A stretch of 64,000 bases of DNA. Source: Lachnospiraceae bacterium. Its GTDB lineage: Bacteria > Bacillota > Clostridia > Lachnospirales > Lachnospiraceae. The position numbers and the translations under genes were made by a program. The stretch is from the NCBI GenBank assembly GCA_022790615.1, contig JAAVXK010000036.1:22886-86885 (forward strand). The letters are read 5' to 3'. Within the stretch, counting starts at the first letter, position 1. Every line of letters starts with the position of its first letter. Below the pieces are notes generated by a model, which was given only the letters and a program-made list of their open reading frames with translations, was not told the DNA's origin and did not search any database. Positions 19,387 through 37,763 of this stretch are shown here, in pieces.

Positions 19387-21666
19387 TTATTGATCATTTT
19401 CTTCCTGACGCGGTGCCCCGTCAATCATATGCATCCGAATTCCGGCGTCATTGTCCGCCTTCCCGTTAGAGCATGTTACATGTACTTCCTTTCGCTCTCC
19501 CGAAAACGGATTATACAGCGTCACGGTTTTATCCATTCCATCCTGCGGCATATATACATGTAACTCGCAATTATTAATATAATCGTAGTCCGGCCTCCCG
19601 TCAATCGTTCCGTGCGGGGTGACCGCGCCTTCCCTGACAAAGCATGGAATTTCGGTGTACGGAATACTTTTAAGCGTAATCCATGCTTTTCCGTCGTACA
19701 CTTCATTTGAAAAATAATTGACCCATCTCCCCTCCGGAAGATAGACGTCGGCCTGCGACTTATCGTTAAATACCGGGGCAACCAGTATGTCTCCGCCAAG
19801 CATATACTGCTTGTCCGTGTACGCGCACATCTTATCGTCAGGATATTCAAGAATCATGCTTCGCATGAGCGGCAGTCCCGTATTATGCGCTTCGACGGCA
19901 AGCCCGTATATATACGGCATAAGCCTGTTTTTAAGGCGTACAAATGTCTTTGCGGTCAGCACCGCGTCCTCACCGTAATTCCAGGGCACCCTGTAAGAGC
20001 CGCTTCCGTGCATCCTCGAATGGGAAGACATAAGCCCGAAAGCCACCCATCTTTTGTACACATCCTCCGTCGAAGTATCCTCAAATCCGCCTATATCATG
20101 GCTCCAAAAACTGTAGCCGGACATTGTCAGTGAAAGGCCTCCCCTTAAGCTCTCCTCCATTGATTCATAATCGGATATGCTGTCGCCGCCCCAGTGTACG
20201 GGGAATTTCTGTCCCCCGGCGGTTCCGCTCCTTGCAAACAAAATTGCCTCTTCGGCTCCCTTTTCCTCCAATATTACATTATACACTGCCTCATTATACA
20301 GATATGAATAATAATTGTGCATAAGTACCGGGTCCGCCCCATTATGATAGCATACGCCCTCCGTCGGAATCTGCTCGCCGAAGTCTGTCTTAAAACAGTC
20401 CACGCCCATGTCTAAGAGTTTCCGCAGACAGTCCTGATACCACCTTACCGCATCCTCATTCGTAAAATCAACCACAGCCATCCCCGGCTGCCACATATCC
20501 CACTGCCAGATGTCTCCGTTTTTCTTCTTTATAAAATATCCGTTATCTCTTCCGCAGGCAAACAATTCCGAATTCTGCGCAATGTATGGATTAATCCATA
20601 CGCAGACCTTAAGCCCTTTCGCCTTAATCCTTGCAAGCATCGCCTCGGGTTCGCCAAACACCTTGTCATCCCACTTAAAATTGCACCAGCTCATACCTTT
20701 CATCCAAAAGCAGTCAAAATGAAATACGCTGAGCGGTATCTCTCTTCTCTCCATCTCGTCAATGAAGCTCATTACCGTGTTTTCATCATAATCCGTAGTA
20801 AATGAGGTCGACAGCCAAAGGCCGAACGACCACGCCGGAAGTATGGGAGGTCTTCCGATAAGCCCCGTATATTTTACCAGCACATCCTTCATGCGGCCAT
20901 ACGCATTCTCATCCCCGCATATGACGGAAAATTCAAGGCTTTCGCCCTGGACGGAAAACTGGACTCTCTGCGCAAGCTCGCTTCCAACCTCGTATTCTAC
21001 TCTTCCGGTATTATTTACGAATACGCCGTACCCTCTGTCTGACATATAAAACGGAACATTTTTATAGGAGAGCTGCGTCGACGTTCCCCCGTCGTCATTC
21101 CACATCTCGACAACCTGCCCGTTTTTAACAAACGCGGTAAATCTTTCCCCCAGACCGTATATGTGTTCGTCAACCGATAAGTTCGTTGCTGCGCACATAT
21201 AGTTAACGTCTTGCCAAGATATGTACGCCTCGCCCCGTCCGTCCTCTCTCACATACATGATATCGCCCGGCTTTATTCGCGTAAGATATCGTTCCTTCTG
21301 GTAAAATTCCAATGTCATATCATTTTTTATAACAAGCTTTGCGCCGTCGTTCTCGATAACAGTGTTACCTTCAACCGACTCTGCCTCAAGTTTTGCAGGG
21401 TTTGCATTTACATCAAATGCCGGCACATACCCGGTCTGTCCCTCAAAGTGTGTTAGCTTTACCGTAAATACCCCCGGAGCCGGAATACTTATCCTTACCG
21501 TTATAACCGGCACATTAAGCGTACACCCCCTGTTATATATTTTCCTTACAGGCGCGCATATCTTTAACACCGTGCCATCCTGTTCATAACATGTATCATA
21601 TATTTCAGCCGGCGAAAGGCACTCCATTCCCTTTTCTTTTAACCAATGTCCGTGATTGAACTTCAT
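19387..21666 (-). CDS. yicI: GH31 alpha-xylosidase
   Basis: MKF..G.W start, YGLGERF, FHFDCFWM, nucleophile FKTDFGE, HWGGD, WSHDIGGF. Confidence 0.93.
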   Translation of the reverse strand: MKFNHGHWLKEKGMECLSPAEIYDTCYEQDGTVLKICAPVRKIYNRGCTLNVPVITVRISIPAPGVFTVKLTHFEGQTGYVPAFDVNANPAKLEAESVEGNTVIENDGAKLVIKNDMTLEFYQKERYLTRIKPGDIMYVREDGRGEAYISWQDVNYMCAATNLSVDEHIYGLGERFTAFVKNGQVVEMWNDDGGTSTQLSYKNVPFYMSDRGYGVFVNNTGRVEYEVGSELAQRVQFSVQGESLEFSVICGDENAYGRMKDVLVKYTGLIGRPPILPAWSFGLWLSTSFTTDYDENTVMSFIDEMERREIPLSVFHFDCFWMKGMSWCNFKWDDKVFGEPEAMLARIKAKGLKVCVWINPYIAQNSELFACGRDNGYFIKKKNGDIWQWDMWQPGMAVVDFTNEDAVRWYQDCLRKLLDMGVDCFKTDFGEQIPTEGVCYHNGADPVLMHNYYSYLYNEAVYNVILEEKGAEEAILFARSGTAGGQKFPVHWGGDSISDYESMEESLRGGLSLTMSGYSFWSHDIGGFEDTSTEDVYKRWVAFGLMSSHSRMHGSGSYRVPWNYGEDAVLTAKTFVRLKNRLMPYIYGLAVEAHNTGLPLMRSMILEYPDDKMCAYTDKQYMLGGDILVAPVFNDKSQADVYLPEGRWVNYFSNEVYDGKAWITLKSIPYTEIPCFVREGAVTPHGTIDGRPDYDYINNCELHVYMPQDGMDKTVTLYNPFSGERKEVHVTCSNGKADNDAGIRMHMIDGAPRQEENDQ

Positions 21667-21730
21667 ATTGTAATAACCTCCTCCTCAATGTTTCTTTTAA
21701 TTAGCAGCAAAACCCAAAAAACCGATATAC

Positions 21731-21768
21731 TCAAAACAGGGTGAACACGTAATGTGTTCACCCTGTTT
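21731..21768 (-). terminator. intrinsic terminator closing the giant-protein/peptide transcript
   Basis: 15-bp perfect stem AAACAGGGTGAACAC / GTGTTCACCCTGTTT ending in a T run on the minus strand. Confidence 0.8.
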
Positions 21769-21842
21769 AAGTTATACCGTTGTCAGATGCCATATACACC
21801 TGACATATTACAACAAAGAATTAATCCACCTAATAGCATATA

Positions 21843-21944
21843 TTATGCAAATGGGTTTACTTCTCCTTCAGGTATACTTGTTGTAATAATATCCTCTGCA
21901 TAGAAGACAATTACCTCCATGTCAGGGGCTTCATACTTCTCCAT
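21843..21944 (-). CDS. 33-aa putative RiPP precursor with lasso-type RRE-binding leader
   Basis: Not in ORF track. MEKYEAPDMEVIVFYAEDIITTSIPEGEVNPFA; GAAAGGTGGTGG RBS 6 nt before ATG; YxxPx(L/M) motif and DIITT-S junction; followed by a terminator. Confidence 0.85.
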   Translation of the reverse strand: MEKYEAPDMEVIVFYAEDIITTSIPEGEVNPFA

Positions 21945-22007
21945 GTATATCCACCACCTTTCCTGATTCAGACGACATGTCGTATCACGGACATAACCAT
22001 CTTATCA

Positions 22008-25000
22008 TTATTTACTCTTGCAGTCATTATAACTGCTTGACTTCATAGAGCCGTAGATTGTTTCCTGATTTCCTTCCGGATCAGTAACTACCATATATGG
22101 TCTTGCCCACAAAGTCCTGTCAAGATTATTTGTAACCTTCATTGTAAATACGCTGGTTACACCTACAGAAGTAAATTTAAACTGTTTATGTGGCAGAACT
22201 GTGCCATTTACTGTCTGTCCCAGAGTTGCTATTGTCATCTGCTCTTCCTGTATCTCCTTAGCGCTATACAACATACCCATTTCAACTACAGTATAATCTT
22301 CACCTTCTGGAAGGTTCATAGTTGAAGAGAACGAAAGCTTATTATTTCCGTCCGCTGTATCAGTAGTGTATATTTCAGTAATAGCAATCGTAGGTTTAAC
22401 TGAACCCGGCTTAACAGAAACATAAACAGCTTTCAGTGTTATTGGAGTCTCAGTCAAAACAACAAACTCATATGGCAGTGCAGAACCGATGTTTTCACCG
22501 TCTCTCTCCCAGTGTGAGAAGTAGAGTGTGCTGCTTCCTACCGTAACTTCTGCCTCTGCATTTGCCTGATACTTACTTCCTACTTCAGGTTGTGCTGTAA
22601 CTTCATCAGCAACAGTATTTCCGCTCGCATCTACATATTGTACTGTTACATTTCCTGTCTTGGCAGCTTCTAACTCATATACAGAATATACATTTATATT
22701 TCCTGTCTTATTCTCTGTTGCTGCCAATTCATCCGCTTTGGCTTTAATAGCAGCTGCAATATCCGCTGTTGCTTCAGTTGCACCTTGTTCCATAGACCAT
22801 CCCTTGAATACATATCCAAACTTGTTAGCGCCGGCAGCCAATTGTATATCAGCAGCTTCCGGAACAGCCAATGGATTAATATCCGTACGGCCTACTTCTG
22901 TTTTATTGTCATAACCATAGAAGATTACGGTTATTCCGCCTTCAATACCGCACCATTTACATTTGCCGCCTACATAAGAATGTGGTACGGCAGGCAATAC
23001 CTGATAGAGCATACCTTCATAAGCCATACCTGCTTCTGTCTGCTCTCCTCCTGAGAAATACTTCTTGTTTTCCACATCGTTCACTGTAGTTCTGGCAAGA
23101 ACCCACTTGTAACCTTCACCAGGTTCAAGCGTACGGTTTTCATCAGGAACTTCTACAGGGTCACAGGATGTACAACGTGCTTCCTGTCCCTGGACATTGA
23201 AATCATTGTCCATTACGGCTTCGGCAGTGTACTTATGTCCCGGGTCGCCTTCCTGACAATCTTTACGCTCACACTCAAATGTTGCCAAAACTGTCGTTCC
23301 CTCTTCTCCTGCCTTCCATGAGAATGTAGGAGTACCATACAAATGTCCTTTTGCAACTCCTGCAACCTGCTCTGCAGTGTACTCGGCAGAACATTTGCTG
23401 TCCTTATAGAATCTGCCGCACCTGTCGCATGCATAATGAGCCGGTTTAGCCGGTTCAATACAAGAAGTCGTTGTTTCCGCCTTTACGTATCTCAGGTTAT
23501 GGTTAGCTGAACCTGTCGCTTCCTCTACGCTATATTCAATGCTGTCCCAACCTTCCGGCAGGTTCCATGATGCCATATCTTCTTGAGATATTCCATCGAA
23601 TACCGCAGTCTTTTCTTCATCAGATACCTGATATTTCCAAGAATATCCTTTAGAACAATCTGTAACCTTAATTCCATCCTCAGCAACAGTTGCTCCAGTT
23701 ACCTGGTCAGATACTACCGCTGCATTCAAAACATATTTCTGAGTATGCGACGCATCATGTGCACATGTACGGGTAATAGTAATTGGAATAGAAAGGGCTC
23801 CGTCTGCAACAGCCGCCTCGTCCTTAGTTACTTTTGCATCACCATAACTATGGGCGTCAGCAACTATAGCAAGGGTCTGCTCCTGACTCATTATCTGTTC
23901 TTCAGCAATATCATCCGAACCAACCAAATCACTATCAGCAATACTCCATGTAGCTGTTCCCGTAGCGCTGCAGGTAGCTTCTAATGTTACTTCTTTCTTA
24001 ACTGACGCGCTTTCCTCCGGCACCTCTACATGGTCGCATCCTGTTCTGGTACACTTCTTAGTCTTTGTAGCAGACCATGTACCATCCTCAGCCTGCGTCC
24101 AATTGATATACCACTTATTCAGATGTCCAAGCTGGTCGCTTGTTAATACCCTCATATCCTGTGCAAGACGAACATTAGTCATGCCCTTCTGATACAGGTT
24201 AGCTGTATATGTCATTGTACCCGACTTATCACATGTAGCCTGCGTACCTGATTTTACAAGCTCAAGAAGAGTATAAGTGTCTTCCCACTTGAACACTGTG
24301 TCTCCGTCTTCATTTTCTGTGCCATCTGTCAATGGCAACTCATAAGTCACAACCGGATAAACGTCATCATTAGCTTCACTTGTGTCCGGATGCTCCTCAC
24401 AAGCTGTACACTTTCTTGTTACTGCCAAGTTTGTATATACATGGTCAGCCTCATTCAAGGTCCAGTTAAATACAGTAGTCTCCTTATGTCCAGGTCCTTC
24501 TTTGGTATATACCTTTGTATTCGGATTACCAATCGTAGTCTCTCCTGCATGAATCTGAGCCACATATTCAGTCCTTGTACTTATTGTACAGCTTCCTTCT
24601 CTATGGTTCGGATTCGATACAAACTCAATATAAGGTTCTTCCTGCTCCGCCGGTGCAGACAACAGTGTGCTTACGTCTGTCTCAATAGTTGTCTTATTCT
24701 GTACACTATTAGTAGTACAGCCTTCATTCGCACAATAATATTCTGCCTGTACTTTATAATCAGGAATATTATATGTTTTTCCATCCTGAGTATACTCTAC
24801 CGTTAATGCTCCGCCGGAAACAGCATCCACCTGTTCTGTCCATGTCCATGCCGGCTCCGTCCAGTTATGAGCGTTAGGATCTATAGCCGTTGCCGTCTCA
24901 ATCTTTTCAGGCACTGCATTAACATCACATATATTCTTGGTGCCATCACGATATTTTACAACAACATCATATACGGCATAGCCTTTTTCTGCACAGGAAG

Positions 25001-28000
25001 CGGTCTTATTCTTTTCACTGTCCGCTTTTGTAATAACAACCTGAGGCATTGAATATACAACAGAGTCGTCATCACCATCCAACATGGTAGAGCCTTCGTC
25101 TATAATCATTGCCGGACTCTTGACTTTCAGTACCTTGTCACATCCTTCGTTCGCGCATGTGATAGTAACTATTACACCCTTACTGTAATCATGAACTGTT
25201 TCTTCAGTATCACCAGCTGTTGCATCTGCCCACTGTACTTTTACATTAGCGCCGCTAAGATTATGTTTCTGCTCTACAACTTTCTCCAGTACAGCAGTAT
25301 ACTTGGTTGACTTTGAGTCTGCAGTTACTTTCGAAGTATCATAGCTAAGTTCTACGTTACCGTCAACCGTCTCTGTAACAACGCCGTCTTTTGAAAAATC
25401 ATATGAAGCGTTATATTTCAATGTAACAGTTTTACCACATTCAGGTGTTGGATTATTCGCATCCGCAGGTGCTTCAATATTACCAATCGTAACTTTATTA
25501 TTACACTCTTTACATGTAATCTCCATCTGCGCCTTATCAGTGTCCTTACCTTCTGCGTCTTTCTCCCAGCTGAACTTCACGCTGCCTGACTCAAAAGTAT
25601 GTGGTCGCATTGGAATAATTGTATCTGCTTCTTCTACAGGTTCTGTTGAATCTTCGCCCAAAAACAGTCTGTTACAGGTTGAACAACTATATGTTGCCTT
25701 GTGTCCTTCCTTCGTACATGTAGCAGCCATGTATCCTTGCTGCTTAGTCAATTCATGAGCCGGAGTAATTGATTTCTCCGCCTCTACAGTTCCTTCCGTA
25801 TCAGCAAACGCAAATACTGCCTTGAACGGATAAGCGTTCTGACATGAAAGACTTGATGCATCAAACTCGCCTGTACCGGCATATGTCACAACAACCGGAT
25901 TCTCGGAAGCAGCCGTAAGTTCCTCTCCACACTTATCACAAACGGCCGTCACAGTCACTCCGTTATCTTGACCTGATGCAAAGTTCTTAATATCAAAATT
26001 ATCCCAGTTTGCTTCAACACTACTTACAGTATGCTTTCCTGCCGGAATGGTTACTTCCTGCTCTGTAAATGTCTTTGACAGCTTACCGCTAGGTGTATTA
26101 ATCGTAACCGTTACATCAAGTTTATATTTCTTTTCCTGTGCACAGTTACTCTTTGGGTCACCTTCTTTTATAATAACAGAAATGTTATTCTCAGAAGCTT
26201 CTATAACATGCTCTGCATTATTAGAACATGTAACCTTTGCTGTTACGCCATTAGCCTCACCATAGGCATAGTTCGCAGCATTGAATTCTGTTGTATCAAT
26301 CGAAATGTTATCTACAGCATAGCTGTGGCCTGTAGCAGGCGTCACGTATGTTGATTCTTTTTTGCCACTTATTCCGTTTGCATCCAACTCAAGCTCACTT
26401 AAGCTATCATAACACAATCCACAATTAGGGCACTTAACGTATGCCTTTGCAATAATATCATTCTCGCATGCATCCGTACCTTCCGGTGTTGCCTCAACAG
26501 TTGTTCCGTAATGCTGTTGTTTAGGAATAACAACATCTCCCGTCAGCATATCAGCGCCGGTCTTATCCTCATACATCTGGTGACAATTCACACACTCATA
26601 ATGACCAATCACGCCTTCTTCCCAACAAGTTGCCGCTTTTTCCGAAACCCATTTTATAGAATGTTCTTTTGGTACAATTACATATCTTCCATCCTGCTGC
26701 TCTGCCGGGCTGCAGCCTGAAACATGCTGAGGTTCCTTATCAAATGAACCTCCTCTGACATTGACATTGATTCCTGTAAGTGTACTATCAGTCTCACCGT
26801 CATAGAATATCTTGCTGTCAGAACCGTTACCTACATTGAATGTTCCTCCATTGATATTCAGGTTCAATTTTACAGGGTCATTATCGGTTCCCGGAACCTT
26901 TTTGTAAGGTATAGAAATTACATGCTGCTCGCCAGTAGTTCCTTTTGCCTCAAATGTACCGTCGTTAATTGTCACATCCGCATTGGCCGGGAGGTAAAGT
27001 ACTGCGTTGAATTTCTTGATAGTATCAGTATTACAACATACTTCACTTGAATATGTTCCGCCGTTAATCGTAATCTTGCCAGGAGCCGTACTTCCGTTCA
27101 TGGCAATCGGAGCAAACATACTTGAAATTGAAGGGTTCTTTGTACCGTCTCCTAATACCAATGTTCCGCCAAGGTTAACGTAGATACCATACATACCGTC
27201 TGTCTTCTGGGCATTACCTACGTTTGCATTAATTGTTGCGTCAAGTACTGTAAGCTTACCGCTTGTACCCGTCACACTAATCAATGACGCGCCGTCATAA
27301 CTTGTATTGTTTGACGTAGACATTTCACTTGTCTGTGCATTACACTCAAGTACAGCGCCGCCTTTAATTGTTGATATGCCGGCTACCATCATCATGGCAA
27401 CGCCCTTTGTCTGGTATTTACCGCCATCAATTGTCAATGTTCCTCTCACATCGAATATCGTGTGATTTTCAGCATTATCTGACCATGCAATTCCACCACT
27501 GTCTTCAGCTGCTACAGTATTCTTAATAACGCCTGTAGTTCCTCCTGTCAGAACAAGCTCCTGACCATCCGGAACCGTAACCATATAACCTTTTGTGTCA
27601 ATAGTCACACCAGTAAAGTCATAACTGCCTGCAAGTTCAATGTTATCCAGTAACTGAACTTCACTATTACCAGCATCTTTAGACGCATTAATAGCATCCT
27701 GAAGCTTTGAAAATTTCTTGCCGTTTACACTGAAACTAACCGGTTCTCCAACCTTGTACAGGCCGTCTCCATCCGCATCCGCAATAAGAGCTTTTCCGGC
27801 AGCAACAGAGCCTTCGTTCAATTCTTTTGATATATCAGAAGAGAACTTTCCTCCGGTTACTGAAACCTTAGTCTTGTTGCTTTCACTAGCCTTGTTCGGA
27901 TAGTAGAATACTGAACCGTTATTACCACCTGTCTTAAAAGTTCCGCCGCTAATCTTCAGATTAAGCCTTACAGTACCATACTGTGTCTTGTCATATGGTA

Positions 28001-28925
28001 TTGAGATAACATGCATATCGCTGCTTGTAGAATCAGAAGCTGTAAATGTTCCGCCGCTTATATCTACAGTAGCGCTTGCCGGAAGGTAAAGCACCGAGTT
28101 AAATTTAATAATATTCTCGCCGCTGCATACCAGCGTGCTGGTATATTCACCACCCTTAATGGTAATCCTTCCAGGCGCGGTCGTAGCGTTCATGGCTACT
28201 GCAGCGAACTTACTGGTTACGGACGGGCCTGTGCCATCGGCATTACCCAGTTCCACTTCTCCTCCGTTCCATATGTATATACCATACATTCCGCAGTCGG
28301 TATCGTTACCAACGTTGGCATCAATGCTACCGTAAGTCATAGTAAACTTCGCTCCCGCGCCATCTACATCAATGAATGCGGCGCCGTCATAATAACCTTT
28401 TGCAGCTGCCTGCTCCTTAGTTGCGGTACAGTCAAATATAGAGCCCTTAGCTGTTACCGTACCGGTAACCTTGAGCATATCTACGCCTGCGCTCTCATAG
28501 AGGCCGCCGTTCATAGTAAGATTACCGTTTACCAGGAGCATGGTATGGTTCTTTGCCATGTCGGTAAACCCAGCTTCCTCTACTGGAACTTCGTTAATAA
28601 TCCTAGTTCCTTGATCGAATACAACATTTTCAGCCGTATCCGGAATCGTAATCAGGTAACCCTTTGTATCAATGGCCACGCCTTCCAGATTCTCGGTAAG
28701 CTGTACGTTTTCTTTCAGCTCAATCTTCTTAGCGCCGGCTTTAACAGCAGCGTCCAAAGTAGCGTAATCGCCGCCCTTTCCGACAGTAACAGCCTGTTCA
28801 GTCGTCTGGCCGCCTGTTTCTGTGCCTTCTGCCGCTCTCGCGTTGGACGGTCCCGAAATAAGCGACACTACCATTGCCGCGCTAAGCGTCAGGCTCAACA
28901 AGCGTTTCAACTTCTTTTGCTTCAT
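22008..28925 (-). CDS. 2305-aa secreted/surface protein: duplicated beta-rich N-terminal domains, about 15 His/Cys modules, beta-sandwich C-terminus
   Basis: Start moved to ATG 28925 (GAAAGGAG RBS; signal peptide MKQKKLKRLLSLTLSAAMVVSLISGPSNARA). Two paralogous domains (GMYGIY, AMN.(T/S)TAPG.ITI.GG, FN.VLYLPA, HVISIPY). Repeated H..(T/S)C..G..CxxC. InlB-B-repeat-like GYVFKGWS and YFSHWE. Confidence 0.9.
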   Translation of the reverse strand: MKQKKLKRLLSLTLSAAMVVSLISGPSNARAAEGTETGGQTTEQAVTVGKGGDYATLDAAVKAGAKKIELKENVQLTENLEGVAIDTKGYLITIPDTAENVVFDQGTRIINEVPVEEAGFTDMAKNHTMLLVNGNLTMNGGLYESAGVDMLKVTGTVTAKGSIFDCTATKEQAAAKGYYDGAAFIDVDGAGAKFTMTYGSIDANVGNDTDCGMYGIYIWNGGEVELGNADGTGPSVTSKFAAVAMNATTAPGRITIKGGEYTSTLVCSGENIIKFNSVLYLPASATVDISGGTFTASDSTSSDMHVISIPYDKTQYGTVRLNLKISGGTFKTGGNNGSVFYYPNKASESNKTKVSVTGGKFSSDISKELNEGSVAAGKALIADADGDGLYKVGEPVSFSVNGKKFSKLQDAINASKDAGNSEVQLLDNIELAGSYDFTGVTIDTKGYMVTVPDGQELVLTGGTTGVIKNTVAAEDSGGIAWSDNAENHTIFDVRGTLTIDGGKYQTKGVAMMMVAGISTIKGGAVLECNAQTSEMSTSNNTSYDGASLISVTGTSGKLTVLDATINANVGNAQKTDGMYGIYVNLGGTLVLGDGTKNPSISSMFAPIAMNGSTAPGKITINGGTYSSEVCCNTDTIKKFNAVLYLPANADVTINDGTFEAKGTTGEQHVISIPYKKVPGTDNDPVKLNLNINGGTFNVGNGSDSKIFYDGETDSTLTGINVNVRGGSFDKEPQHVSGCSPAEQQDGRYVIVPKEHSIKWVSEKAATCWEEGVIGHYECVNCHQMYEDKTGADMLTGDVVIPKQQHYGTTVEATPEGTDACENDIIAKAYVKCPNCGLCYDSLSELELDANGISGKKESTYVTPATGHSYAVDNISIDTTEFNAANYAYGEANGVTAKVTCSNNAEHVIEASENNISVIIKEGDPKSNCAQEKKYKLDVTVTINTPSGKLSKTFTEQEVTIPAGKHTVSSVEANWDNFDIKNFASGQDNGVTVTAVCDKCGEELTAASENPVVVTYAGTGEFDASSLSCQNAYPFKAVFAFADTEGTVEAEKSITPAHELTKQQGYMAATCTKEGHKATYSCSTCNRLFLGEDSTEPVEEADTIIPMRPHTFESGSVKFSWEKDAEGKDTDKAQMEITCKECNNKVTIGNIEAPADANNPTPECGKTVTLKYNASYDFSKDGVVTETVDGNVELSYDTSKVTADSKSTKYTAVLEKVVEQKHNLSGANVKVQWADATAGDTEETVHDYSKGVIVTITCANEGCDKVLKVKSPAMIIDEGSTMLDGDDDSVVYSMPQVVITKADSEKNKTASCAEKGYAVYDVVVKYRDGTKNICDVNAVPEKIETATAIDPNAHNWTEPAWTWTEQVDAVSGGALTVEYTQDGKTYNIPDYKVQAEYYCANEGCTTNSVQNKTTIETDVSTLLSAPAEQEEPYIEFVSNPNHREGSCTISTRTEYVAQIHAGETTIGNPNTKVYTKEGPGHKETTVFNWTLNEADHVYTNLAVTRKCTACEEHPDTSEANDDVYPVVTYELPLTDGTENEDGDTVFKWEDTYTLLELVKSGTQATCDKSGTMTYTANLYQKGMTNVRLAQDMRVLTSDQLGHLNKWYINWTQAEDGTWSATKTKKCTRTGCDHVEVPEESASVKKEVTLEATCSATGTATWSIADSDLVGSDDIAEEQIMSQEQTLAIVADAHSYGDAKVTKDEAAVADGALSIPITITRTCAHDASHTQKYVLNAAVVSDQVTGATVAEDGIKVTDCSKGYSWKYQVSDEEKTAVFDGISQEDMASWNLPEGWDSIEYSVEEATGSANHNLRYVKAETTTSCIEPAKPAHYACDRCGRFYKDSKCSAEYTAEQVAGVAKGHLYGTPTFSWKAGEEGTTVLATFECERKDCQEGDPGHKYTAEAVMDNDFNVQGQEARCTSCDPVEVPDENRTLEPGEGYKWVLARTTVNDVENKKYFSGGEQTEAGMAYEGMLYQVLPAVPHSYVGGKCKWCGIEGGITVIFYGYDNKTEVGRTDINPLAVPEAADIQLAAGANKFGYVFKGWSMEQGATEATADIAAAIKAKADELAATENKTGNINVYSVYELEAAKTGNVTVQYVDASGNTVADEVTAQPEVGSKYQANAEAEVTVGSSTLYFSHWERDGENIGSALPYEFVVLTETPITLKAVYVSVKPGSVKPTIAITEIYTTDTADGNNKLSFSSTMNLPEGEDYTVVEMGMLYSAKEIQEEQMTIATLGQTVNGTVLPHKQFKFTSVGVTSVFTMKVTNNLDRTLWARPYMVVTDPEGNQETIYGSMKSSSYNDCKSK

Positions 28926-28939
28926 AGTGTATAAAACTC

Positions 28940-29530
28940 CTTTCATGTATAATATGTGACAGTCGTACAAACCCTCTGCCGGACTGCAAATCCCGGCGGC
29001 GCGCCCAAACAAGGGGCTTATAGGGTATGAAATGGACTTTGCCATGACTTCTCAGAGACATTCACAAGACCTTGTGGAGTGTCTCTCATGAATCTTGCAA
29101 TAATCCATGAAACACACAATGGCACATTACGTTTGCAGTTCCAACCTTCCACAAAGGCATGTAAACTTTCCCTTGCAGAATATGAATCCATATGGTTCCC
29201 AGCAAATCACTTCATAATGTCATGGATGCTTCTGCCCTCCTCTCAGTATATCCATATAAATGGTAATTGCCCATTGTCATATAACTGCCACTTTCATTGC
29301 CGCTTCTGCAGCAATGTATGGAAACAAAAAACCTTCCCACCCATTTGTTCCCATACATAAGCCGCAGAAACATGCTTTCGTTAAATACACTACGGCAAAA
29401 CGCCGTCTCGCCGGACTCCCGGCATTGAACACACTTTAACAAAACATAATTTTGCAGATAAAATTATTTTGCAAAATATATTTTCAAAATATATATAAAA
29501 GCATATTTTTTTCAAAACACACTTATATAC
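28940..29530 (-). promoter_or_regulatory. long (about 600 nt) structured 5' leader
   Basis: Lies between a consensus promoter and the ATG at 28925; long hairpins at 29304-29369, 29054-29086, 29410-29423 and 28978-28997. Confidence 0.6.
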
Positions 29531-29535
29531 CCTAA

Positions 29536-29564
29536 ATTATAGCACCCGGCTATCTTATTGTCAA
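29536..29564 (-). promoter_or_regulatory. perfect-consensus sigA promoter for the giant protein/peptide unit
   Basis: TTGACA-17-(TGC)TATAAT. Confidence 0.85.
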
Positions 29565-29711
29565 CAACACCGCCGCACACACTTTATTCCATTTCTTCCA
29601 GCGATTGCGTAAATCTTGCTTTTCGTCAATCCCCCGCTCCGCCGTTCCTGCGCGGCCGTTTTCCCATGTGCGCGTGCTCCGCTGTTTTCCACATATCCGG
29701 ATAGTTTCGTA

Positions 29712-29740
29712 ATTATATCATCTTCGGTTACTATATGCAA
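29712..29740 (-). promoter_or_regulatory. second, upstream sigA-type promoter
   Basis: TTGCAT-17-(TGA)TATAAT. Confidence 0.6.
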
Positions 29741-29771
29741 GCCAATTATGAAATAGACAGTTTATTTCCAT

Positions 29772-30968
29772 CTATTTCCCGCCGATATCGCGCAATGCGC
29801 CAAGTTCCGTTTTGAGACTTTTTCTGTAACGAAACAGCTGTCTGAACACACGGTAAACAAGAAAAAACGGAATGCATACCTTATGCTTTGCAAGGAACGG
29901 CTTATGTCTGCGATACCAATCCATGTCCGGAAACAGCCTTCTTACTATATATCTTCTTCTTACTGCTGCGCCGGGCGTCCCTCCGTCTATATGCATCTCC
30001 TGCATTTTCCTCTCCACAAGCCCTTTCGATGTTCCATATACTCCCGACAATGCAAAATCAGCCAGCAGGGTCTTTTCCTTTTCCGTAAGCGCCGGCGGAT
30101 TTGACAGCGCGTTCTCTCCAAATATTTTCCGGCTCAAAGCCCTCATTTTTGCCTCAAACGAGGCCATCCCAAGCTTATCCGCCTCACTTGTCACGTAATT
30201 CCAGTCTAACGCATCCCCCTTTTTCCATATATACACATATATGTCGGCCAGGTATCGGAATCCCGCGCCGGCGTTTAAGTAATGCCGGTACATGTGGGCA
30301 ATCATGTAGATATAGAAGTCCTCGTCGCTAAAATGCCTTCCGTATTCCAACCCTTCGTCCACAATCAGCCTGTCGCGCACTCCCCTGTAATATTGACATA
30401 ACGTCGGGGAAGCTTTGTCAAAGAGTCTGCCGTGCATCTCAAAACATCCCGCCGTCGGCTTCACGAATACGTCGTGATATTTTTTGTTGAGCTCCTCTGT
30501 CCGAAACCCCAAATTCTCCATTACCCGCCTGAGCTTTTTGTGGCAGGACACGTCATAGAGAATGTCCACATCGCCGTTCTGGCGCATTCCATAACACGGA
30601 TACATATACTGCAGCACGCTCCCCTTCAGGGGCATATACCAGATTCCCGCCGCTTCCATTGCCGTAAGGACCTGTTCCCTTGACGCGTCGAGAAGCATGT
30701 TCTTACGTATCGCCTTTCCCTTCTCCATAGTCCATTTCTGCACTGTGGATGCGTCTGCAGACTTGAAAGATTCCGTTCTTTCCAACGGCATACATATCAT
30801 GGCAGCCATATTATGGAACACGCCCATCCTGCACAGCCTATCCAAATCCATCAAAGCGACCCTGTCTTCCTCCGGAGCGCGGTCATGCAGGGCGCAGGCC
30901 GCAAGATACAACAGATCCCACGCTGCCGCGGGCATCTTTTTATTATCCGTCCTCTGCTCCTTACCCAT
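29772..30968 (-). CDS. nucleotidyltransferase family protein (NTP_transf_5-like)
   Basis: PLKGSVL..MYP..GMRQNGDVDIL motif, FEMH, H..RH....GAGFRYLADI; ATG 30968 preferred over GTG 30983. Confidence 0.88.
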   Translation of the reverse strand: MGKEQRTDNKKMPAAAWDLLYLAACALHDRAPEEDRVALMDLDRLCRMGVFHNMAAMICMPLERTESFKSADASTVQKWTMEKGKAIRKNMLLDASREQVLTAMEAAGIWYMPLKGSVLQYMYPCYGMRQNGDVDILYDVSCHKKLRRVMENLGFRTEELNKKYHDVFVKPTAGCFEMHGRLFDKASPTLCQYYRGVRDRLIVDEGLEYGRHFSDEDFYIYMIAHMYRHYLNAGAGFRYLADIYVYIWKKGDALDWNYVTSEADKLGMASFEAKMRALSRKIFGENALSNPPALTEKEKTLLADFALSGVYGTSKGLVERKMQEMHIDGGTPGAAVRRRYIVRRLFPDMDWYRRHKPFLAKHKVCIPFFLVYRVFRQLFRYRKSLKTELGALRDIGGK

Positions 30969-31013
30969 ACTGCACGCCCTCACCTTTCCCTAATTATCGC
31001 CAAACACTATAAT

Positions 31014-32783
31014 TTATCCAAACTTTATCTCTTTGTCGCATATCGACAGCGCCGCCATCCTGTGGGTTACTATAATGACCGTCTTATCAGTCATTGCCTT
31101 GAGATTAGCAAGAAGCCTTATCTCAAGAGCCTCGTCGAGCGCGCTAGTCGCCTCATCGAGCAGTAAAACCGGGTTGTCCGAAAATACCGCCCGCGCAATT
31201 GCAATACGCTGCATCTGCCCTTCCGAAAGACCCGTGCCGCGTTCGCCAAGCAAAGTGTCAACACCCTGTTCTAACTGTCTGACAAAGCCATCGGCGCATG
31301 CAATTTTCAATGCCCGCCAAAGCCGTTCTTCCTCCTGCATCATACCCGGATTGCCGAATGCTATAATCTCGCGAATCGTACCGGACATAAGCTGGTTCCC
31401 CTGCGGAACGTATGCAAAAAGCCGCCGCTGTCTGAGCGTAAGAGGAAGTTTCCCCGCATCCGAAACAAGGTACACCCCCCCGCCATCCGGATGATACAAG
31501 CCCATAAGCAGCTTGAGAACGGTGCTCTTGCCGCATCCGGAATGTCCGGTAAATGCAACATACTCTCCCTTACATATCTCTAAGCAAAGACCCGAGAGCA
31601 CTGCAGGCATTGACTGCCCGTCCGGCAGATTATCTTCCAGAACACCCGACTGTACCGGAGGTCTGTAAGTAAAGGATACGTTTTCCACACAGATTCTATG
31701 CAGACGCTCCCTGTAAAACACATGCTCTGGACTTTCATCTTCGCCGCTGCAACCTGCCTCTGTTATTTCATACTCATCATTCATACTATTCGTCCCCGCC
31801 GTTTCATGTATGACGCTGTCAGGCAGATATTCCGCCTCCATGAGACGCTCCGCGCTTGCTATCATCGCATAAAACTTTGGCAGATATCCCGTAATATTAG
31901 CAAAAGGATTCTGTATCTGACCGATAAGCTGCATTACGGCAGTCAGATTTCCATAACTCATAGTATCTCTTAGTATGCCGTACCCGCAAAAAACAGCTCC
32001 TAACACATAAGCTCCGTTCATTGCGGCTCCGAAACCGATGTTACATATATTAGAAAAATGATTCCTTCTCATCTTGGCCGCGCGGTGTTCTTTCATAAGT
32101 TCCTCCGCGCGTTCCGCCGTCGAAGCCTCCTGCGCGAAAGAACGGACAATCATCATTGCGCCAAGACGCTCCTGAAAAAATATTCTGAGACTCCCGTCCG
32201 CCTCCTGTATCTTCTTATGCAATTTCTTAAGGGCTTTCCTGAAAATGTAGGCCATAATAATCAAGATAGCCCCTCCGGGAACAAGTATTATGATAAACAC
32301 CGGCTCAATATACAGTATTGCGGCCAGTGCGCCCACAATCTTAACAGCCATTCCCGCCACGCCGGGAAGAATCTGAGCCATTCCGTCCGCTACTACAACC
32401 GTATCGGACGTCAGCCGGTTCATCCATTCACCTGAATTCACGCATGACACATATGCGTAATCCTTATACAGCAAAGATTCAAAAAGCCGCTTTTTCAAAC
32501 GGTTTTCGGAAGCGGAACGCGTGAATTCCTCCAAAAAGCGATAGACTGCCCGCAGCGCAATCTGTACAATCATTACTCCCGCAAAAGCCATGGCCGCCAC
32601 AGCAAATCCATCCGCGTTTCCAGCCACAGCCTCATTTACCAGTTCCCGCAGTATCATTGCGTATGCCACACCGCAGACCGACAGCACGGACTGTACGGCC
32701 AACAGTATCAGGATGTGTATTCTAATCTTTCCGGCCACGCCATTCAGCCACTGTAACGCGGAACGGTTTATTTTCTTTTTCAT
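31014..32783 (-). CDS. ABC exporter, fused permease/ATPase, no C39 peptidase domain
   Basis: TM domain; Walker A GHSGCGKST; signature LSEGQMQR; Walker B LLLDE. Confidence 0.95.
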   Translation of the reverse strand: MKKKINRSALQWLNGVAGKIRIHILILLAVQSVLSVCGVAYAMILRELVNEAVAGNADGFAVAAMAFAGVMIVQIALRAVYRFLEEFTRSASENRLKKRLFESLLYKDYAYVSCVNSGEWMNRLTSDTVVVADGMAQILPGVAGMAVKIVGALAAILYIEPVFIIILVPGGAILIIMAYIFRKALKKLHKKIQEADGSLRIFFQERLGAMMIVRSFAQEASTAERAEELMKEHRAAKMRRNHFSNICNIGFGAAMNGAYVLGAVFCGYGILRDTMSYGNLTAVMQLIGQIQNPFANITGYLPKFYAMIASAERLMEAEYLPDSVIHETAGTNSMNDEYEITEAGCSGEDESPEHVFYRERLHRICVENVSFTYRPPVQSGVLEDNLPDGQSMPAVLSGLCLEICKGEYVAFTGHSGCGKSTVLKLLMGLYHPDGGGVYLVSDAGKLPLTLRQRRLFAYVPQGNQLMSGTIREIIAFGNPGMMQEEERLWRALKIACADGFVRQLEQGVDTLLGERGTGLSEGQMQRIAIARAVFSDNPVLLLDEATSALDEALEIRLLANLKAMTDKTVIIVTHRMAALSICDKEIKFG

Positions 32784-33238
32784 CGCTTAAGCTTCCTTTT
32801 TAGCCGGCCGTATATCTCTTTCAGCCAGAGGATTATAACCCTGATATAGAAAAAATCACACCATATATGGGCGTATACCCTATATCTCCAGTCCGAAACC
32901 GGAATCGTCCTGCCATCCCGCACTACGGCGGAAAGCACGCCGATAATCTGGCGGTCGGTAATTCCGTATTCCCTGCGCCGGCAGTTATCCCCGCAGAGTA
33001 CATAGCTGTCATTATTTACTTTCAAGATACGATGCAGGACATATTTCCCGTCATTGCGCTTATATAGGGGAACGTCGTATCTCTGGCAGCGCCCGTCAGG
33101 CTTACGAATAATCATCAAATCCCTGTTCTGCCTTAGCAGCGGCATCATGCTTGTGCCAACATTCGTATACACAAGCCTGCCGCTTTCACTGATTTCTTCC
33201 TCAAAGGTCTTTTTATCATCCATCCATAGTCCCACCAT
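32780..33238 (-). CDS. S24/S26-family peptidase (Ser/His type, no N-terminal TM)
   Basis: GTSMMPLL catalytic Ser, VLHRI, CGDN; overlaps the ABC gene by 4 nt; start could be 33223. Confidence 0.88.
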   Translation of the reverse strand: MVGLWMDDKKTFEEEISESGRLVYTNVGTSMMPLLRQNRDLMIIRKPDGRCQRYDVPLYKRNDGKYVLHRILKVNNDSYVLCGDNCRRREYGITDRQIIGVLSAVVRDGRTIPVSDWRYRVYAHIWCDFFYIRVIILWLKEIYGRLKRKLKR

Positions 33239-33282
33239 CCGTCCTCAGCCGCGGACTTCTTACCTGCCGCTCATACAAACTA

Positions 33283-33540
33283 TCATTCTATAGCCCCGAT
33301 AGAGTTAAGTTTTTCAATTATCTTATTGACGTCCGCCTCAATCACTTCCCGCGGAGCGTCATATTTTGCAGCCATTGCATCTACAATCTCTGCCTGCGTA
33401 GTCTCTTCCTTAAGACAGTTAACAATAAATGCCGCCGTGCGGTTGCTTCGCACCATACCCGAAAATACGGACGTGCTTCCCGCAACCATAATCTGCTCAC
33501 CGTCACTTTCATGGGTGATGAAATCTTTCCGCAGTTTCAT
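33283..33540 (-). CDS. PqqD-family RiPP recognition element (stand-alone RRE)
   Basis: 85 aa: three beta strands, then NRTAAFIVNCL...IVDAMAAKYDAPREVIEADVNKIIEKLNSIGAIE. Confidence 0.92.
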   Translation of the reverse strand: MKLRKDFITHESDGEQIMVAGSTSVFSGMVRSNRTAAFIVNCLKEETTQAEIVDAMAAKYDAPREVIEADVNKIIEKLNSIGAIE

Positions 33541-33711
33541 CTATACAAAACCTCCAAATTATATATGCAGAGTGCATATATCTTAACTATTTATCCATGG
33601 GTACGCAATACTCCTATATATATTATCTGTATATCACAGGACAATATACAATAACCAGTATTAACGTAAGAATACTCAATAATTAGCAATTCAACATTAA
33701 GGTATGAATAC

Positions 33712-34473
33712 TCACTTCATACCTTCATAAGCCGTCACGGCGGCCTGCGCTTCCATATTACATGCAAGCCGGTACAATCCGGCTTTTGAAGTTATCTGTT
33801 CCGTCAGGCGCATAACCTGCTCCAGCTTATCCGAACACGCCGGGCGGTAGGTTTGCTGCATAAGAAACGGCCAGGCCTCCCTGCGCGTAATTTTACGAAT
33901 CCTGTTTTCACTGCCGCGTTCCAGAATGCATACCGCTTTCAGGGGAACCGCAATATTATTACTCAAATGATGCTTCCCGTCCCATGGTGTGCCATATACG
34001 GTCACTCCGCCATCCGTAATCCTTAGCAGCGGCTTATCGTCGTTAACCATTACCGCACGGCTGCCGAAGGTTTCTCTCCATATCCGCGTATGCGTACTCT
34101 TTCCAACGCCGCTCTTAGCCGTGAAAAGATAGGCCTCGCCATCCACCGCAACCGCCGAACCATGAAACAAAAGAATTCCCCAATCTGTCAGCTCTTCCGC
34201 AATCTTTCTGTACACTGCAAGCGTCTCCAGGTAATTGTCCGAAAACCGCCGTACACTCACGCCATTACGCTCATCCTGCATTGCGGACTTTTCTTTTTCA
34301 AATACTATATCGGAATATTCTACACAAACTTTACAAGCAGGTTTCTCATCCGTCAAATATTCCCGGCAAAATAGTTTTGTTGAATTATATAAGGCAGAGA
34401 TACCAATAGGAACATCTGCCAGTTTTATATTAAATCTTATATTTTCCCCCAAACCTTTCCTCCTGACATACAA
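33712..34473 (-). CDS. HPr-kinase-like P-loop kinase (ScmC / lasso-kinase-like)
   Basis: LFHGSAV, Walker A AKSGVGKST, VNDD, YGTPWDGK; true start may be TTG at 34452. Confidence 0.85.
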   Translation of the reverse strand: MYVRRKGLGENIRFNIKLADVPIGISALYNSTKLFCREYLTDEKPACKVCVEYSDIVFEKEKSAMQDERNGVSVRRFSDNYLETLAVYRKIAEELTDWGILLFHGSAVAVDGEAYLFTAKSGVGKSTHTRIWRETFGSRAVMVNDDKPLLRITDGGVTVYGTPWDGKHHLSNNIAVPLKAVCILERGSENRIRKITRREAWPFLMQQTYRPACSDKLEQVMRLTEQITSKAGLYRLACNMEAQAAVTAYEGMK

Positions 34474-34519
34474 AAACGTATTATCCCGCCGCCATACTTC
34501 CCAGAGAGTATTTCAAGCA

Positions 34520-34548
34520 ATTATAGCACGAATACCCTTTTAATGCAA
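34520..34548 (-). promoter_or_regulatory. sigA-type promoter of kinase/RRE cassette
   Basis: TTGCAT-17-(TGC)TATAAT. Confidence 0.7.
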
Positions 34549-34560
34549 AGAATATTTCGA

Positions 34561-34595
34561 GCTTAATTATGCGCTTAATTATGCCTTAAATTTAT
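34561..34595. repeat. direct repeat GCTTAATTATGC x2 plus a degenerate third copy, between divergent promoters
   Basis: gcttaattatgc gcttaattatgc cttaaatttat. Confidence 0.6.
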
Positions 34596-34689
34596 CTTGC
34601 TAATTTCCAGATTTATGCTAGACTATTCTTATGGGAATTCCACGAAATTCCTTTTACACTTACTGCAAAATGCAGGGACGGGAGACGCC

Positions 34690-36963: not shown

Positions 36964-36980
36964 AAGGACGGCGGTACAAT

Positions 36981-37763
36981 ATGGGTAAAAAAAATAATAA
37001 AAATAAAAAAAATAAAAAAAGAAAAAAATGTTATTCTATAGAAAAATCTTTAGAAAATGACAAGCAGTCTGCAATCAATATAGTATATGACCACTACAGG
37101 GAAACCTATCAATTGAGCAGACAAGCCCAGCAAAGGCGAAATAAAAGTTTTATCATACTCTGTATATTAGAGGCGTTTTCTTTCCTATTGCTAATCAGGC
37201 CCGAACAGGTATTGAATCTTATTATTGACAGTATTAACAGCCAATTGGATATTACATTGACATTTGGAAATACCATATTGCAGACCTTATTGTGGATATT
37301 AATAATATATGTAATGATTCGCTATATACAGGATGTATTTTACATAGAACGGCAGTATTCATATATCGGCAGCCTGGAAGCGGCGATGGAGTCCTTGATG
37401 CAGGATGCAATAAAGGAATCAAAGACGCTTTCTGTGAACAGCAAACTATTTCTTCGGGAAAGCGATAACTACCTGACAGATTATCCGATTGTTCTGAATC
37501 TGATTGATTTATTTTACAAAACGCTCATACCTGTTATATTTATCGTAATAAATACTGTGCGTATCTACAATGAGTGGGCTTTTATAAGATATAAAATGAC
37601 ACTGGCATTTTTTTGTGACAGTGTCATGTACGTATCGCTTTTTATTATTACATGGTTTTATTATTTTGAAATCCACGCAAAAACAACGGCGTTTATTAAG
37701 AGGCATGTGCGGTTTGTGGATAAAACCGCACGCTTTCTGAAAAAGCTGTTAAAAAATGTTTAG
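36981..37763 (+). CDS. 4-TM membrane protein, AT-rich, coupled to TIR gene
   Basis: GAAAGGA RBS overlaps the TIR gene stop; four hydrophobic segments; Lys/Asn-rich N-terminus. Confidence 0.8.
   Translation: MGKKNNKNKKNKKRKKCYSIEKSLENDKQSAINIVYDHYRETYQLSRQAQQRRNKSFIILCILEAFSFLLLIRPEQVLNLIIDSINSQLDITLTFGNTILQTLLWILIIYVMIRYIQDVFYIERQYSYIGSLEAAMESLMQDAIKESKTLSVNSKLFLRESDNYLTDYPIVLNLIDLFYKTLIPVIFIVINTVRIYNEWAFIRYKMTLAFFCDSVMYVSLFIITWFYYFEIHAKTTAFIKRHVRFVDKTARFLKKLLKNV

Follow-up and report, generated by a model that had tools for sequence, protein, structure and literature searches.

The window analysed here, a 64,000-nucleotide stretch of a mouse-gut Lachnospiraceae bacterium (assembly GCA_022790615.1, contig JAAVXK010000036.1, positions 22,886 to 86,885), carries a gut-Clostridia version of the linear polyphosphorylated peptide (LPP) pathway first described in 2026 (Popov et al., Nat Commun 2026;17:6633, PMC13381572), in which a small LppA-like precursor gene sits directly behind the gene of a giant secreted protein. 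This pairing is repeated up to ten times per genome in relatives, which hints at what these peptides are for. The gene set and order, K-B-S-D-N (kinase, RRE, signal-peptidase-like enzyme, exporter, NTP transferase), are those of the LPP clusters of Bacilli, in which the kinase polyphosphorylates a core serine and the signal-peptidase-like enzyme, helped by the RRE, removes the leader. Two results go beyond that work: the near-constant position of the precursor gene behind a gene for a signal-peptide protein with no visible wall anchor, and the match between families of peptide cores and the C-terminal region of the upstream proteins, one cassette serving up to ten such pairs per genome.

The locus had been picked out by a sequence-only reading, which described seven co-directional genes and a terminator, and this observation was confirmed: all seven minus-strand genes are real. 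The kinase-like gene lies at 33712-34473, behind a promoter-like site at 34520..34549 (10 of 12 consensus positions, with an extended -10 TG; consensus match only). The kinase call is weak by sequence (ScmC, E 7e-7), but PF27840 (ScmC) is recorded on a near-identical protein, the P-loop G-x-G-K-S-T is invariant, and the AlphaFold model (pLDDT 96) matches the PEP-carboxykinase/HPr-kinase P-loop fold (Foldseek E 3e-7 and 5e-5). Next comes a stand-alone PqqD/RRE gene at 33283-33540 (PF05402, E 1.4e-15). Its product is collinear with LppB and keeps N33, Y60 and D70, residues whose role has been described. N33 is invariant and D70 at least 90% conserved in 32 homologues, although the similarity to LppB is weak by score (E 0.0017, probability 15%). 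A PDB sequence search with this RRE returned only weak lasso B1 hits (TbiB1, E 0.035), and the LppB entry named in PMC13381572 did not appear among them.

The S24/S26-like gene, at 32780-33238 with a likely start at 33223, encodes an LppS-like putative leader peptidase of the soluble S26B type (SipW/archaeal-type), with a basic amphipathic C-terminal helix. Its best NCBIfam hit is archaeal signal peptidase I, weakly. Ser25, His64 and Asp79 (147-aa numbering) are invariant in 20 homologues, and alignment of the S26 profile with an LppS fragment (HHalign probability 90%, E 1.6e-6) superposes all three boxes, the catalytic Ser, His and Asp being aligned; S29, H68 and D93 of LppS are shown to be essential in PMC13381572. 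This gene overlaps by 4 nt the start of an ABC exporter gene (31014-32783), whose only transporter domains are ABC_membrane and ABC_tran. MsbA-type models score best on this protein, and no C39 peptidase domain was found, the transporter starting directly with its membrane domain, in contrast to double-glycine bacteriocin exporters. An LppN-like nucleotidyltransferase gene of the NTP_transf_5 family follows at 29772-30983 (PF14907, E 5.8e-43, G-S ... D-x-D motif present).

A perfect TTGACA-17-TATAAT promoter with TG, at 29536..29564 on the minus strand, is predicted to begin a second transcription unit made of a leader of about 610 nt, the giant gene and the precursor gene. This unit is inferred from sequence only, as the RNA-library evidence consisted of assembled contigs, from which transcription, strand and transcript ends cannot be claimed, and parts of the locus lacking such a contig prove nothing. 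An Rfam search over 21600-34700 found no family, in the leader or elsewhere. The giant ORF is open from 29045 to 22008, its likely start being Met41 at 28925, which gives the 2305 aa of the sequence-only reading (22008..28925) and a classic signal peptide. Neither an LPXTG motif nor a C-terminal membrane anchor was found. Its last 125 aa or so (22011..22415, about residues 2175-2305) form a domain that we call type B, predicted to be an Ig/Fn3-like beta-sandwich with no Pfam family. Foldseek on the domain model returned only generic Ig/Fn3-like sandwiches, none at E <= 0.001, and a protein atlas gave only unnamed Bacillota clusters. The 33-aa ORF, P0001, lies at 21843-21944 with a strong ribosome-binding site, 63 nt after the stop of the giant gene, and is followed at 21767-21733 by an intrinsic terminator (perfect 14-bp stem, 5-nt loop, T run).

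P0001 is not a chance ORF, as more than 80 homologues with the same leader were found in other genomes, 42 of them in a total of 1.2 Mb around S26-like genes of other species, with a conserved leader and hypervariable tails. The leader has Y4-x-x-P7 and F14-x-A16, Ser23 is invariant and lies in a T-T-S motif, and the tail is variable and acidic. In this family Y, F and one Ser are invariant and the residue two after F is small. The spacing is however P-x6-F instead of the published P-x9-F, and the Ser lies 9 residues after F instead of 5, so that the same logic appears in a different register. A loose regular-expression search for divergent precursors, in cassette loci that lack one, returned only noise. 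In 401 genomes of the same order, all 35 with a leader-type peptide also have the S26-like gene, against only 15 of the other 366. These 15 S26-positive genomes had no detectable leader peptide, and many cassettes lack the ABC and/or NTP genes, being reduced in many cases to K-B-S, so that export and the nucleotidyl step are not universal.

We next examined what lies upstream of the precursor genes. Among 41 precursor genes, 16 directly follow a signal-peptide protein of at least 500 aa, against 7% of background genes. Every ORF with a C-terminal domain of type A (11/11) or type B (5/5) is followed by a precursor within 0-70 nt. All 29 loci found by the leader alone have a long same-strand ORF ending -3 to 62 nt upstream, and only one has cassette genes within 1.5 kb. 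In one genome, designated G242, which has a single K-B-S cassette, 10 of 10 precursors follow complete signal-peptide proteins, including a pectinesterase and a GDSL esterase. A search with the single type B domain sequence in 400 genomes of the order recovered only the window's own copy, and a search with the C-terminal 135 aa of the giant, restricted to proteins of 238-2000 aa, gave no hit; a later profile search showed that the single sequence was simply too insensitive. Five of 5 genes picked only by the type B domain from 1.84 billion proteins are followed by a leader-type peptide. Core families match clusters of the C-terminal 200 aa of the upstream proteins, although this could partly reflect inheritance of the two genes as one unit, and related genomes are not independent samples. 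None of about 30 partner proteins has an LPXTG motif or a C-terminal membrane helix. We had at first given even odds to the giant protein being a chance neighbour, and reject this in view of these counts.

The interpretation given by the sequence-only reading, a lasso-like but cyclase-free, RRE-dependent pathway making a linear, phosphorylated and exported peptide with a signal-peptidase-fold enzyme as leader peptidase, is supported, since this is what was shown experimentally for the homologous Bacilli LPP clusters (PMC13381572). Its inclusion of the giant protein and its suggestion of a cell-surface role are both backed by the comparative genomics above. Its statement that no product is characterised for this architecture is out of date, and the nucleotidyl or glyco modification that it proposed remains hypothetical, as LppN had no detectable activity in the published system.

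We consider, with moderate confidence, that the locus is a Clostridia-branch LPP system joined to a module made of a secreted protein and its cognate peptide. Homology establishes that the cassette encodes the five LPP enzymes in the published order and supports P0001 as an LppA-like precursor; all the chemistry, as well as binding and export, is inferred by analogy with the Paenibacillus system. In this view, the RRE would bind the YxxP leader using Asn33 and Asp70, and the kinase would add one or more phosphates to Ser23, the only hydroxyl residue invariant in more than 80 homologous precursors. The Ser/His/Asp peptidase, presented with the leader by the RRE, would remove it, either after F14-x-A16 (equivalent to the published F-E-T cut) or after T21, the difference in leader spacing making the site ambiguous. 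The product would then be residues 17-33 or 22-33, with the phospho-serine 7 or 2 residues into the core, rather than 3. The ABC pump would export this product, and the nucleotidyltransferase would add a phosphate-linked group of unknown nature. A complex prediction with S26, RRE and the precursor as partner gave no answer, one control being too close, and counts neither for nor against binding. From comparative genomics, we infer that the exported peptide is a specific partner of the protein encoded just upstream, most likely through its C-terminal domain, and that one cassette matures many such peptides per genome. Our best guess is that it acts as an adaptor or anchor tying anchor-less secreted proteins to the cell envelope.

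Alternatively, the peptide may be a free LPP-type secreted product, such as a signal, a bacteriocin or a matrix component, whose gene merely shares an operon with surface-protein genes. Hypervariable cores behind a conserved leader are also typical of pheromones and bacteriocins, some precursors sit directly before the kinase gene with no large protein upstream (as in loci L015, L032 and L040), and the Bacilli LPP loci lie in capsule loci rather than next to such proteins. We find this unlikely, because co-regulation alone does not easily explain the near universal adjacency, including overlapping stop and start codons, the matching of cores with C-terminal regions, the prediction of a downstream peptide by the C-terminal domain alone, and the presence of up to ten different peptides per genome. 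It is more doubtful still that the small protein is an intracellular or co-secretion helper of the large one, for instance a chaperone-like or strand-donating peptide, rather than a substrate of the cassette. The tight, often translational, coupling of the two genes and the distance of most pairs from any cassette would fit, but every leader-positive genome also carries the S26-like gene, the leader has, as in LppA, the YxxP RRE motif, an F-x-small site and an invariant Ser, and many precursors sit immediately before the kinase gene.

A true lasso peptide, with a cyclase and a B2 protease acting in trans, was rejected as very unlikely, even though the leader resembles lasso leaders and the kinase, RRE, ABC and NTP_transf_5 set is shared with paeninodin-type clusters. 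No macrolactam cyclase or B2 protease was found in the window or in 80 related loci, and no cyclase recurs in 84 such loci. In the 2.63-Mb MAG, which is only 85% complete, no Transglut_core3 was found, and the only full Asn_synthase is a canonical AsnB (TIGR01536 scores 452 bits against a cut-off of 267, while the lasso-cyclase model scores below its cut-off). Predicted cores are moreover as short as about 7-12 residues, and the published LPP products are linear.

A further possibility, which we put forward only tentatively, is that these loci constitute a previously unrecognised surface-protein partnering or anchoring system of gut and rumen Clostridia. Each peptide would bind the C-terminal domain of the Sec-secreted enzyme or adhesin encoded before it through its variable tail, while its phosphorylated, and perhaps nucleotidyl- or glycan-linked, head would tie the complex to the envelope. 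This would give LPP-type peptides their first biological role, the authors who described them stating that the final product and role are unknown. The branch is much larger than their data set, with more than 2,400 S26-like sequence clusters at 90% identity and 990 representative clusters for the C-terminal domain of the giant, and it occurs in culturable rumen Ruminococcus strains. Culturable carriers include Ruminococcus flavefaciens FD-1, YAD2003 and SAb67, and Ruminococcus sp. zg-924. The near-obligatory pairing makes the role of the phosphopeptide experimentally approachable and, if it does bind, retain or position its partner, this bears on how fibre-degrading gut bacteria display pectinesterases, esterases, starch-binding proteins and adhesins.

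The closest known system is the lppA-K-B-S-D-N cluster of Bacilli, for example that of Paenibacillus alginolyticus DSM5050, with the same five enzyme families in the same order, no cyclase, a YxxP leader with an F-x-small site and a conserved Ser followed by a variable tail, a Ser/His/Asp leader peptidase and an RRE with Asn33 and Asp70. The present branch belongs to a different class, gut and rumen Clostridia, with only distant sequence similarity, and it has its own leader, with P-x6-F spacing and an extra conserved block ending in T-T-S. Its cores are short and acidic (about 7-35 aa) rather than 45 aa, basic and Gly/Asn-rich, and its precursor genes are dispersed and paired with secreted-protein genes, a pairing that is not mentioned in PMC13381572. 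Paeninodin- and pseudomycoidin-type phosphorylated lasso clusters of Firmicutes share the HprK-like kinase, stand-alone RRE, NTP_transf_5, ABC exporter and YxxP/WxxP leader logic, but here the Asn-synthetase-like cyclase and transglutaminase-like B2 protease are missing, an S26B-type serine peptidase is inferred to remove the leader instead, and the predicted product is linear. With SipW and archaeal-eukaryal type signal peptidase I (S26B), the peptidase shares the Ser/His(/Asp) arrangement and the S-M-x-P, H-R and G-D-N boxes, but it has about 147 aa, no N-terminal membrane anchor, and would act with an RRE on a cytoplasmic leader rather than on Sec signal peptides. Finally, as a functional analogy only, sortase/LPXTG and the cohesin-dockerin system of Ruminococcus also rely on one processing locus per genome serving many secreted enzymes and adhesins that share a C-terminal module; here there is no sorting signal in cis, no LPXTG motif, hydrophobic helix and basic tail or dockerin was seen, and the shared element is a separate small gene product plus an unannotated C-terminal domain.

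All seven co-directional genes described by the sequence-only reading were found to be present as claimed, on the minus strand. The PqqD/RRE gene matched PF05402 (E 1.4e-15), the ABC exporter was found to contain membrane and ATPase domains but no C39 domain, and the nucleotidyltransferase matched PF14907 (NTP_transf_5, E 5.8e-43). The S24/S26-like protein has the S-M-x-P, H-R and G-D-N boxes, and its best NCBIfam hit was archaeal signal peptidase I, although weakly. For the kinase, only a weak match to ScmC was obtained by sequence. However, its P-loop is invariant in 31 homologues, and an AlphaFold model with a pLDDT of 96 matched ATP-dependent PEP carboxykinase and HPr kinase/phosphatase. 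The giant ORF is open from 29045, but Met41, at 28925, starts a typical signal peptide and yields a protein of 2305 aa, and a representative of identical length, P0122, is present in the public protein library. The 33-aa ORF, which encodes the putative precursor peptide P0001, has a strong ribosome-binding site 63 nt after the stop of the giant gene, and is followed by a perfect 14-bp hairpin terminator.

Consensus scans placed one promoter-like site before the kinase gene, and a perfect extended −10 promoter at 29564-29536, before the giant gene. The locus is therefore probably composed of two units, one containing the kinase (K), RRE (B), S26-like peptidase (S), exporter (D) and nucleotidyltransferase (N) genes, and the other the giant and precursor genes. 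An untranslated leader of about 610 nt (28925-29536, minus strand) separates the perfect promoter from the start of the giant gene. It contains a terminator-like hairpin at 29413-29393, and no Rfam family matched it. Contigs from one mouse-gut RNA library cover the giant gene and parts of the cassette, and a contig from a second RNA library covers the precursor ORF. Both stop near 21956 (21955-21957), inside the ribosome-binding site of the precursor, where a DNA run continues. This may reflect an RNA processing site or an assembly break, and since only contigs are concerned, it is at most a weak hint of an RNA end between the two genes. On the other side, the cassette is flanked by a divergent gene for a 788-aa TIR/TPR-type protein and a downstream 267-aa ORF (34597-37763, plus strand). 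The same neighbour is present in the same-species contig L014 but not in the loci of other species, so that it is probably unrelated to the pathway.

We next asked whether lasso peptide enzymes were encoded elsewhere in the genome, a 2.63-Mb, 85%-complete MAG from mouse gut. No Transglut_core3 was found in it. Its only full-length Asn_synthase passed the curated cut-off for ordinary glutamine-hydrolysing asparagine synthase, and failed the lasso-cyclase models. Clustering of all ORFs around 84 related loci revealed no further recurrent enzyme family besides K, B, S, D and N. The same genome has a second, reduced module on another contig (C23:1264-2619), with a 49-aa leader-type peptide lacking the Pro of YxxP (1264-1413, plus strand), a 93-aa membrane protein, and a convergent S26-like gene (1875-2372, minus strand) plus RRE (2353-2619, minus strand). 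This module lies next to spoIIP-gpr-rpsT, and has no second kinase or nucleotidyltransferase.

A literature search led to a report on "linear polyphosphorylated peptides" (LPP) of Bacilli (Popov et al., Nat Commun 2026, PMC13381572), whose clusters contain lppA, coding for the precursor, and lppK, B, S, D and N in the same order as here. In Bacillus subtilis, LppK puts up to four phosphates on core Ser3, and LppS, with catalytic residues S29/H68/D93, removes the leader after F-E-T, only in the presence of the RRE LppB. LppN showed no activity, and neither the final product nor its role is known. The family profile of our S26-like protein aligned to an LppS fragment, taken from the supplement of that paper, with 90% HHalign probability (E 1.6e-6) across the three catalytic boxes. 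The RRE aligned to LppB without gaps and keeps Asn33, Tyr60 and Asp70, of which Asn33 and Asp70 are shown in the paper to hold the Pro and Tyr of the leader.

To examine the clostridial branch of this family, we collected relatives of the S26-like protein, of which more than 2,400 at 60-75% identity were found in gut and rumen metagenomes, and fetched 80 species-level loci around it. Thirty of these have all five genes, while others lack the ABC and/or NTP gene, or consist of S26 and ABC only. In several Lachnospiraceae-labelled genomes (loci L009-L011, L016-L017 and L023), this two-gene form lies beside rpsT-gpr-spoIIP, with no RRE, kinase or detectable precursor within 10 kb, and its function is unexplained. 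A profile built from P0001-like hits found 42 precursor genes in the fetched loci. Their leader is very conserved: Tyr, Phe and one Ser are invariant, and the block before that Ser is nearly invariant, whereas the tail after the Ser is hypervariable, 7-35 aa long and mostly acidic. Loci in which the tails behind the same leader are Cys-rich also carry radical SAM/SPASM RiPP maturases, inserted in the cassettes (L048:7995-9425 and L034:10076-11428, also L058 and L072), and these look like hybrid phospho/thioether peptides. In some Ruminococcus loci (L094:10342-11103, and L075 at the same position), a gene for a 253-aa SAM-methyltransferase lies between the S26-like and ABC genes, and is a further tailoring candidate.

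We then looked at the genes preceding the precursors. In the cassette-centred loci, 16 of 41 precursor genes directly follow a gene for a signal-peptide protein of at least 500 aa, compared to 7% of background genes, and in some cases stop and start codons overlap. On one metagenomic contig, L140, two consecutive pairs of large protein and leader peptide (1-485 and 1501-6426) sit just upstream of a kinase gene, showing that the pairs can be arrayed in tandem. The N-terminal parts of the secreted proteins are unrelated to one another, and include transglutaminase-like, cadherin-like, Big_2, CBM26, Glug and Flg_new domains. Their C-termini, however, fall into a few unannotated domain types. Type A is about 280 aa long, and type B, the domain found at the end of the giant protein, is about 125 aa long and predicted to be an Ig/Fn3-like sandwich. 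In 1.2 Mb of locus sequence, every carrier of type A (11/11) and of type B (5/5) is followed within 0-70 nt by a precursor gene.

Three independent samplings agreed with this pairing. A search of 401 genomes of the same order with the leader alone found 35 positive genomes, with up to ten copies each. All 29 loci fetched from this search show a long same-strand ORF ending −3 to 62 nt upstream, and only one has cassette genes within 1.5 kb. In one genome (G242), all ten precursor genes follow complete signal-peptide proteins of 330-1540 aa, among them a pectinesterase and a GDSL esterase, and this genome has one K-B-S cassette. Finally, a profile of the type B domain found 990 representative proteins in a library of 1.84 billion proteins, nearly always at the extreme C-terminus, and all five genes sampled from that list are followed by a leader-type peptide. 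All 35 leader-positive genomes carry the S26-like gene, compared to 15 of the 366 others; as related genomes are not independent, no p-value is given for this difference. Clusters of the C-terminal 200 aa of the upstream proteins coincide with families of peptide tails. None of about 30 partner proteins has an LPXTG motif or a C-terminal membrane helix.

What the analysis establishes is the gene content, its homology to LPP clusters and the recurrent pairing of precursor and secreted-protein genes, whereas the enzymology is inferred from the published homologues, and any partnership of peptide and protein from comparative data. In this view, the RRE would capture the leader, the kinase phosphorylate the conserved Ser, the S26B-type peptidase remove the leader and the ABC pump export the product, the nucleotidyltransferase performing an unknown phosphate-directed step. 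The mechanism put forward by the sequence-only reading, a cyclase-free, RRE-dependent route to a linear, modified and exported peptide, is supported. The comparative data add that each peptide would be a cognate partner of the secreted protein encoded before it, one cassette serving many such pairs. We favour an adaptor or anchor role at the cell surface, but binding is only inferred, the one complex prediction carried out having given no verdict. Alternatively, the peptide may be a free signal or bacteriocin that is merely co-regulated with the secreted protein, or a helper peptide that is not processed by the cassette. A lasso peptide made in trans is very unlikely.

The sequence-only reading had also held that no product is characterised for this architecture, a claim that has been overtaken by the LPP report. 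The text of that paper never mentions Clostridia, Ruminococcus, or secreted or surface proteins, and a few clostridial peptidases appear, unanalysed, in minor network clusters of its supplement. The systematic pairing with secreted proteins is new compared to the paper that we found, and gives a testable lead on LPP function. The clostridial cluster also differs from the published ones in its leader, where the spacing is P-x6-F-x-[small] instead of P-x9-F-x-[T/A], and the invariant Ser lies nine residues after Phe. The leader could therefore be cut in either of two places, after F14-x-A16, by analogy with the published motif, or after T21, which keeps the hydrophobic-x-Thr context and puts the Ser at +2. 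Either way, the only invariant hydroxyl residue stays in the predicted product, which fits the strict serine specificity of LppK.
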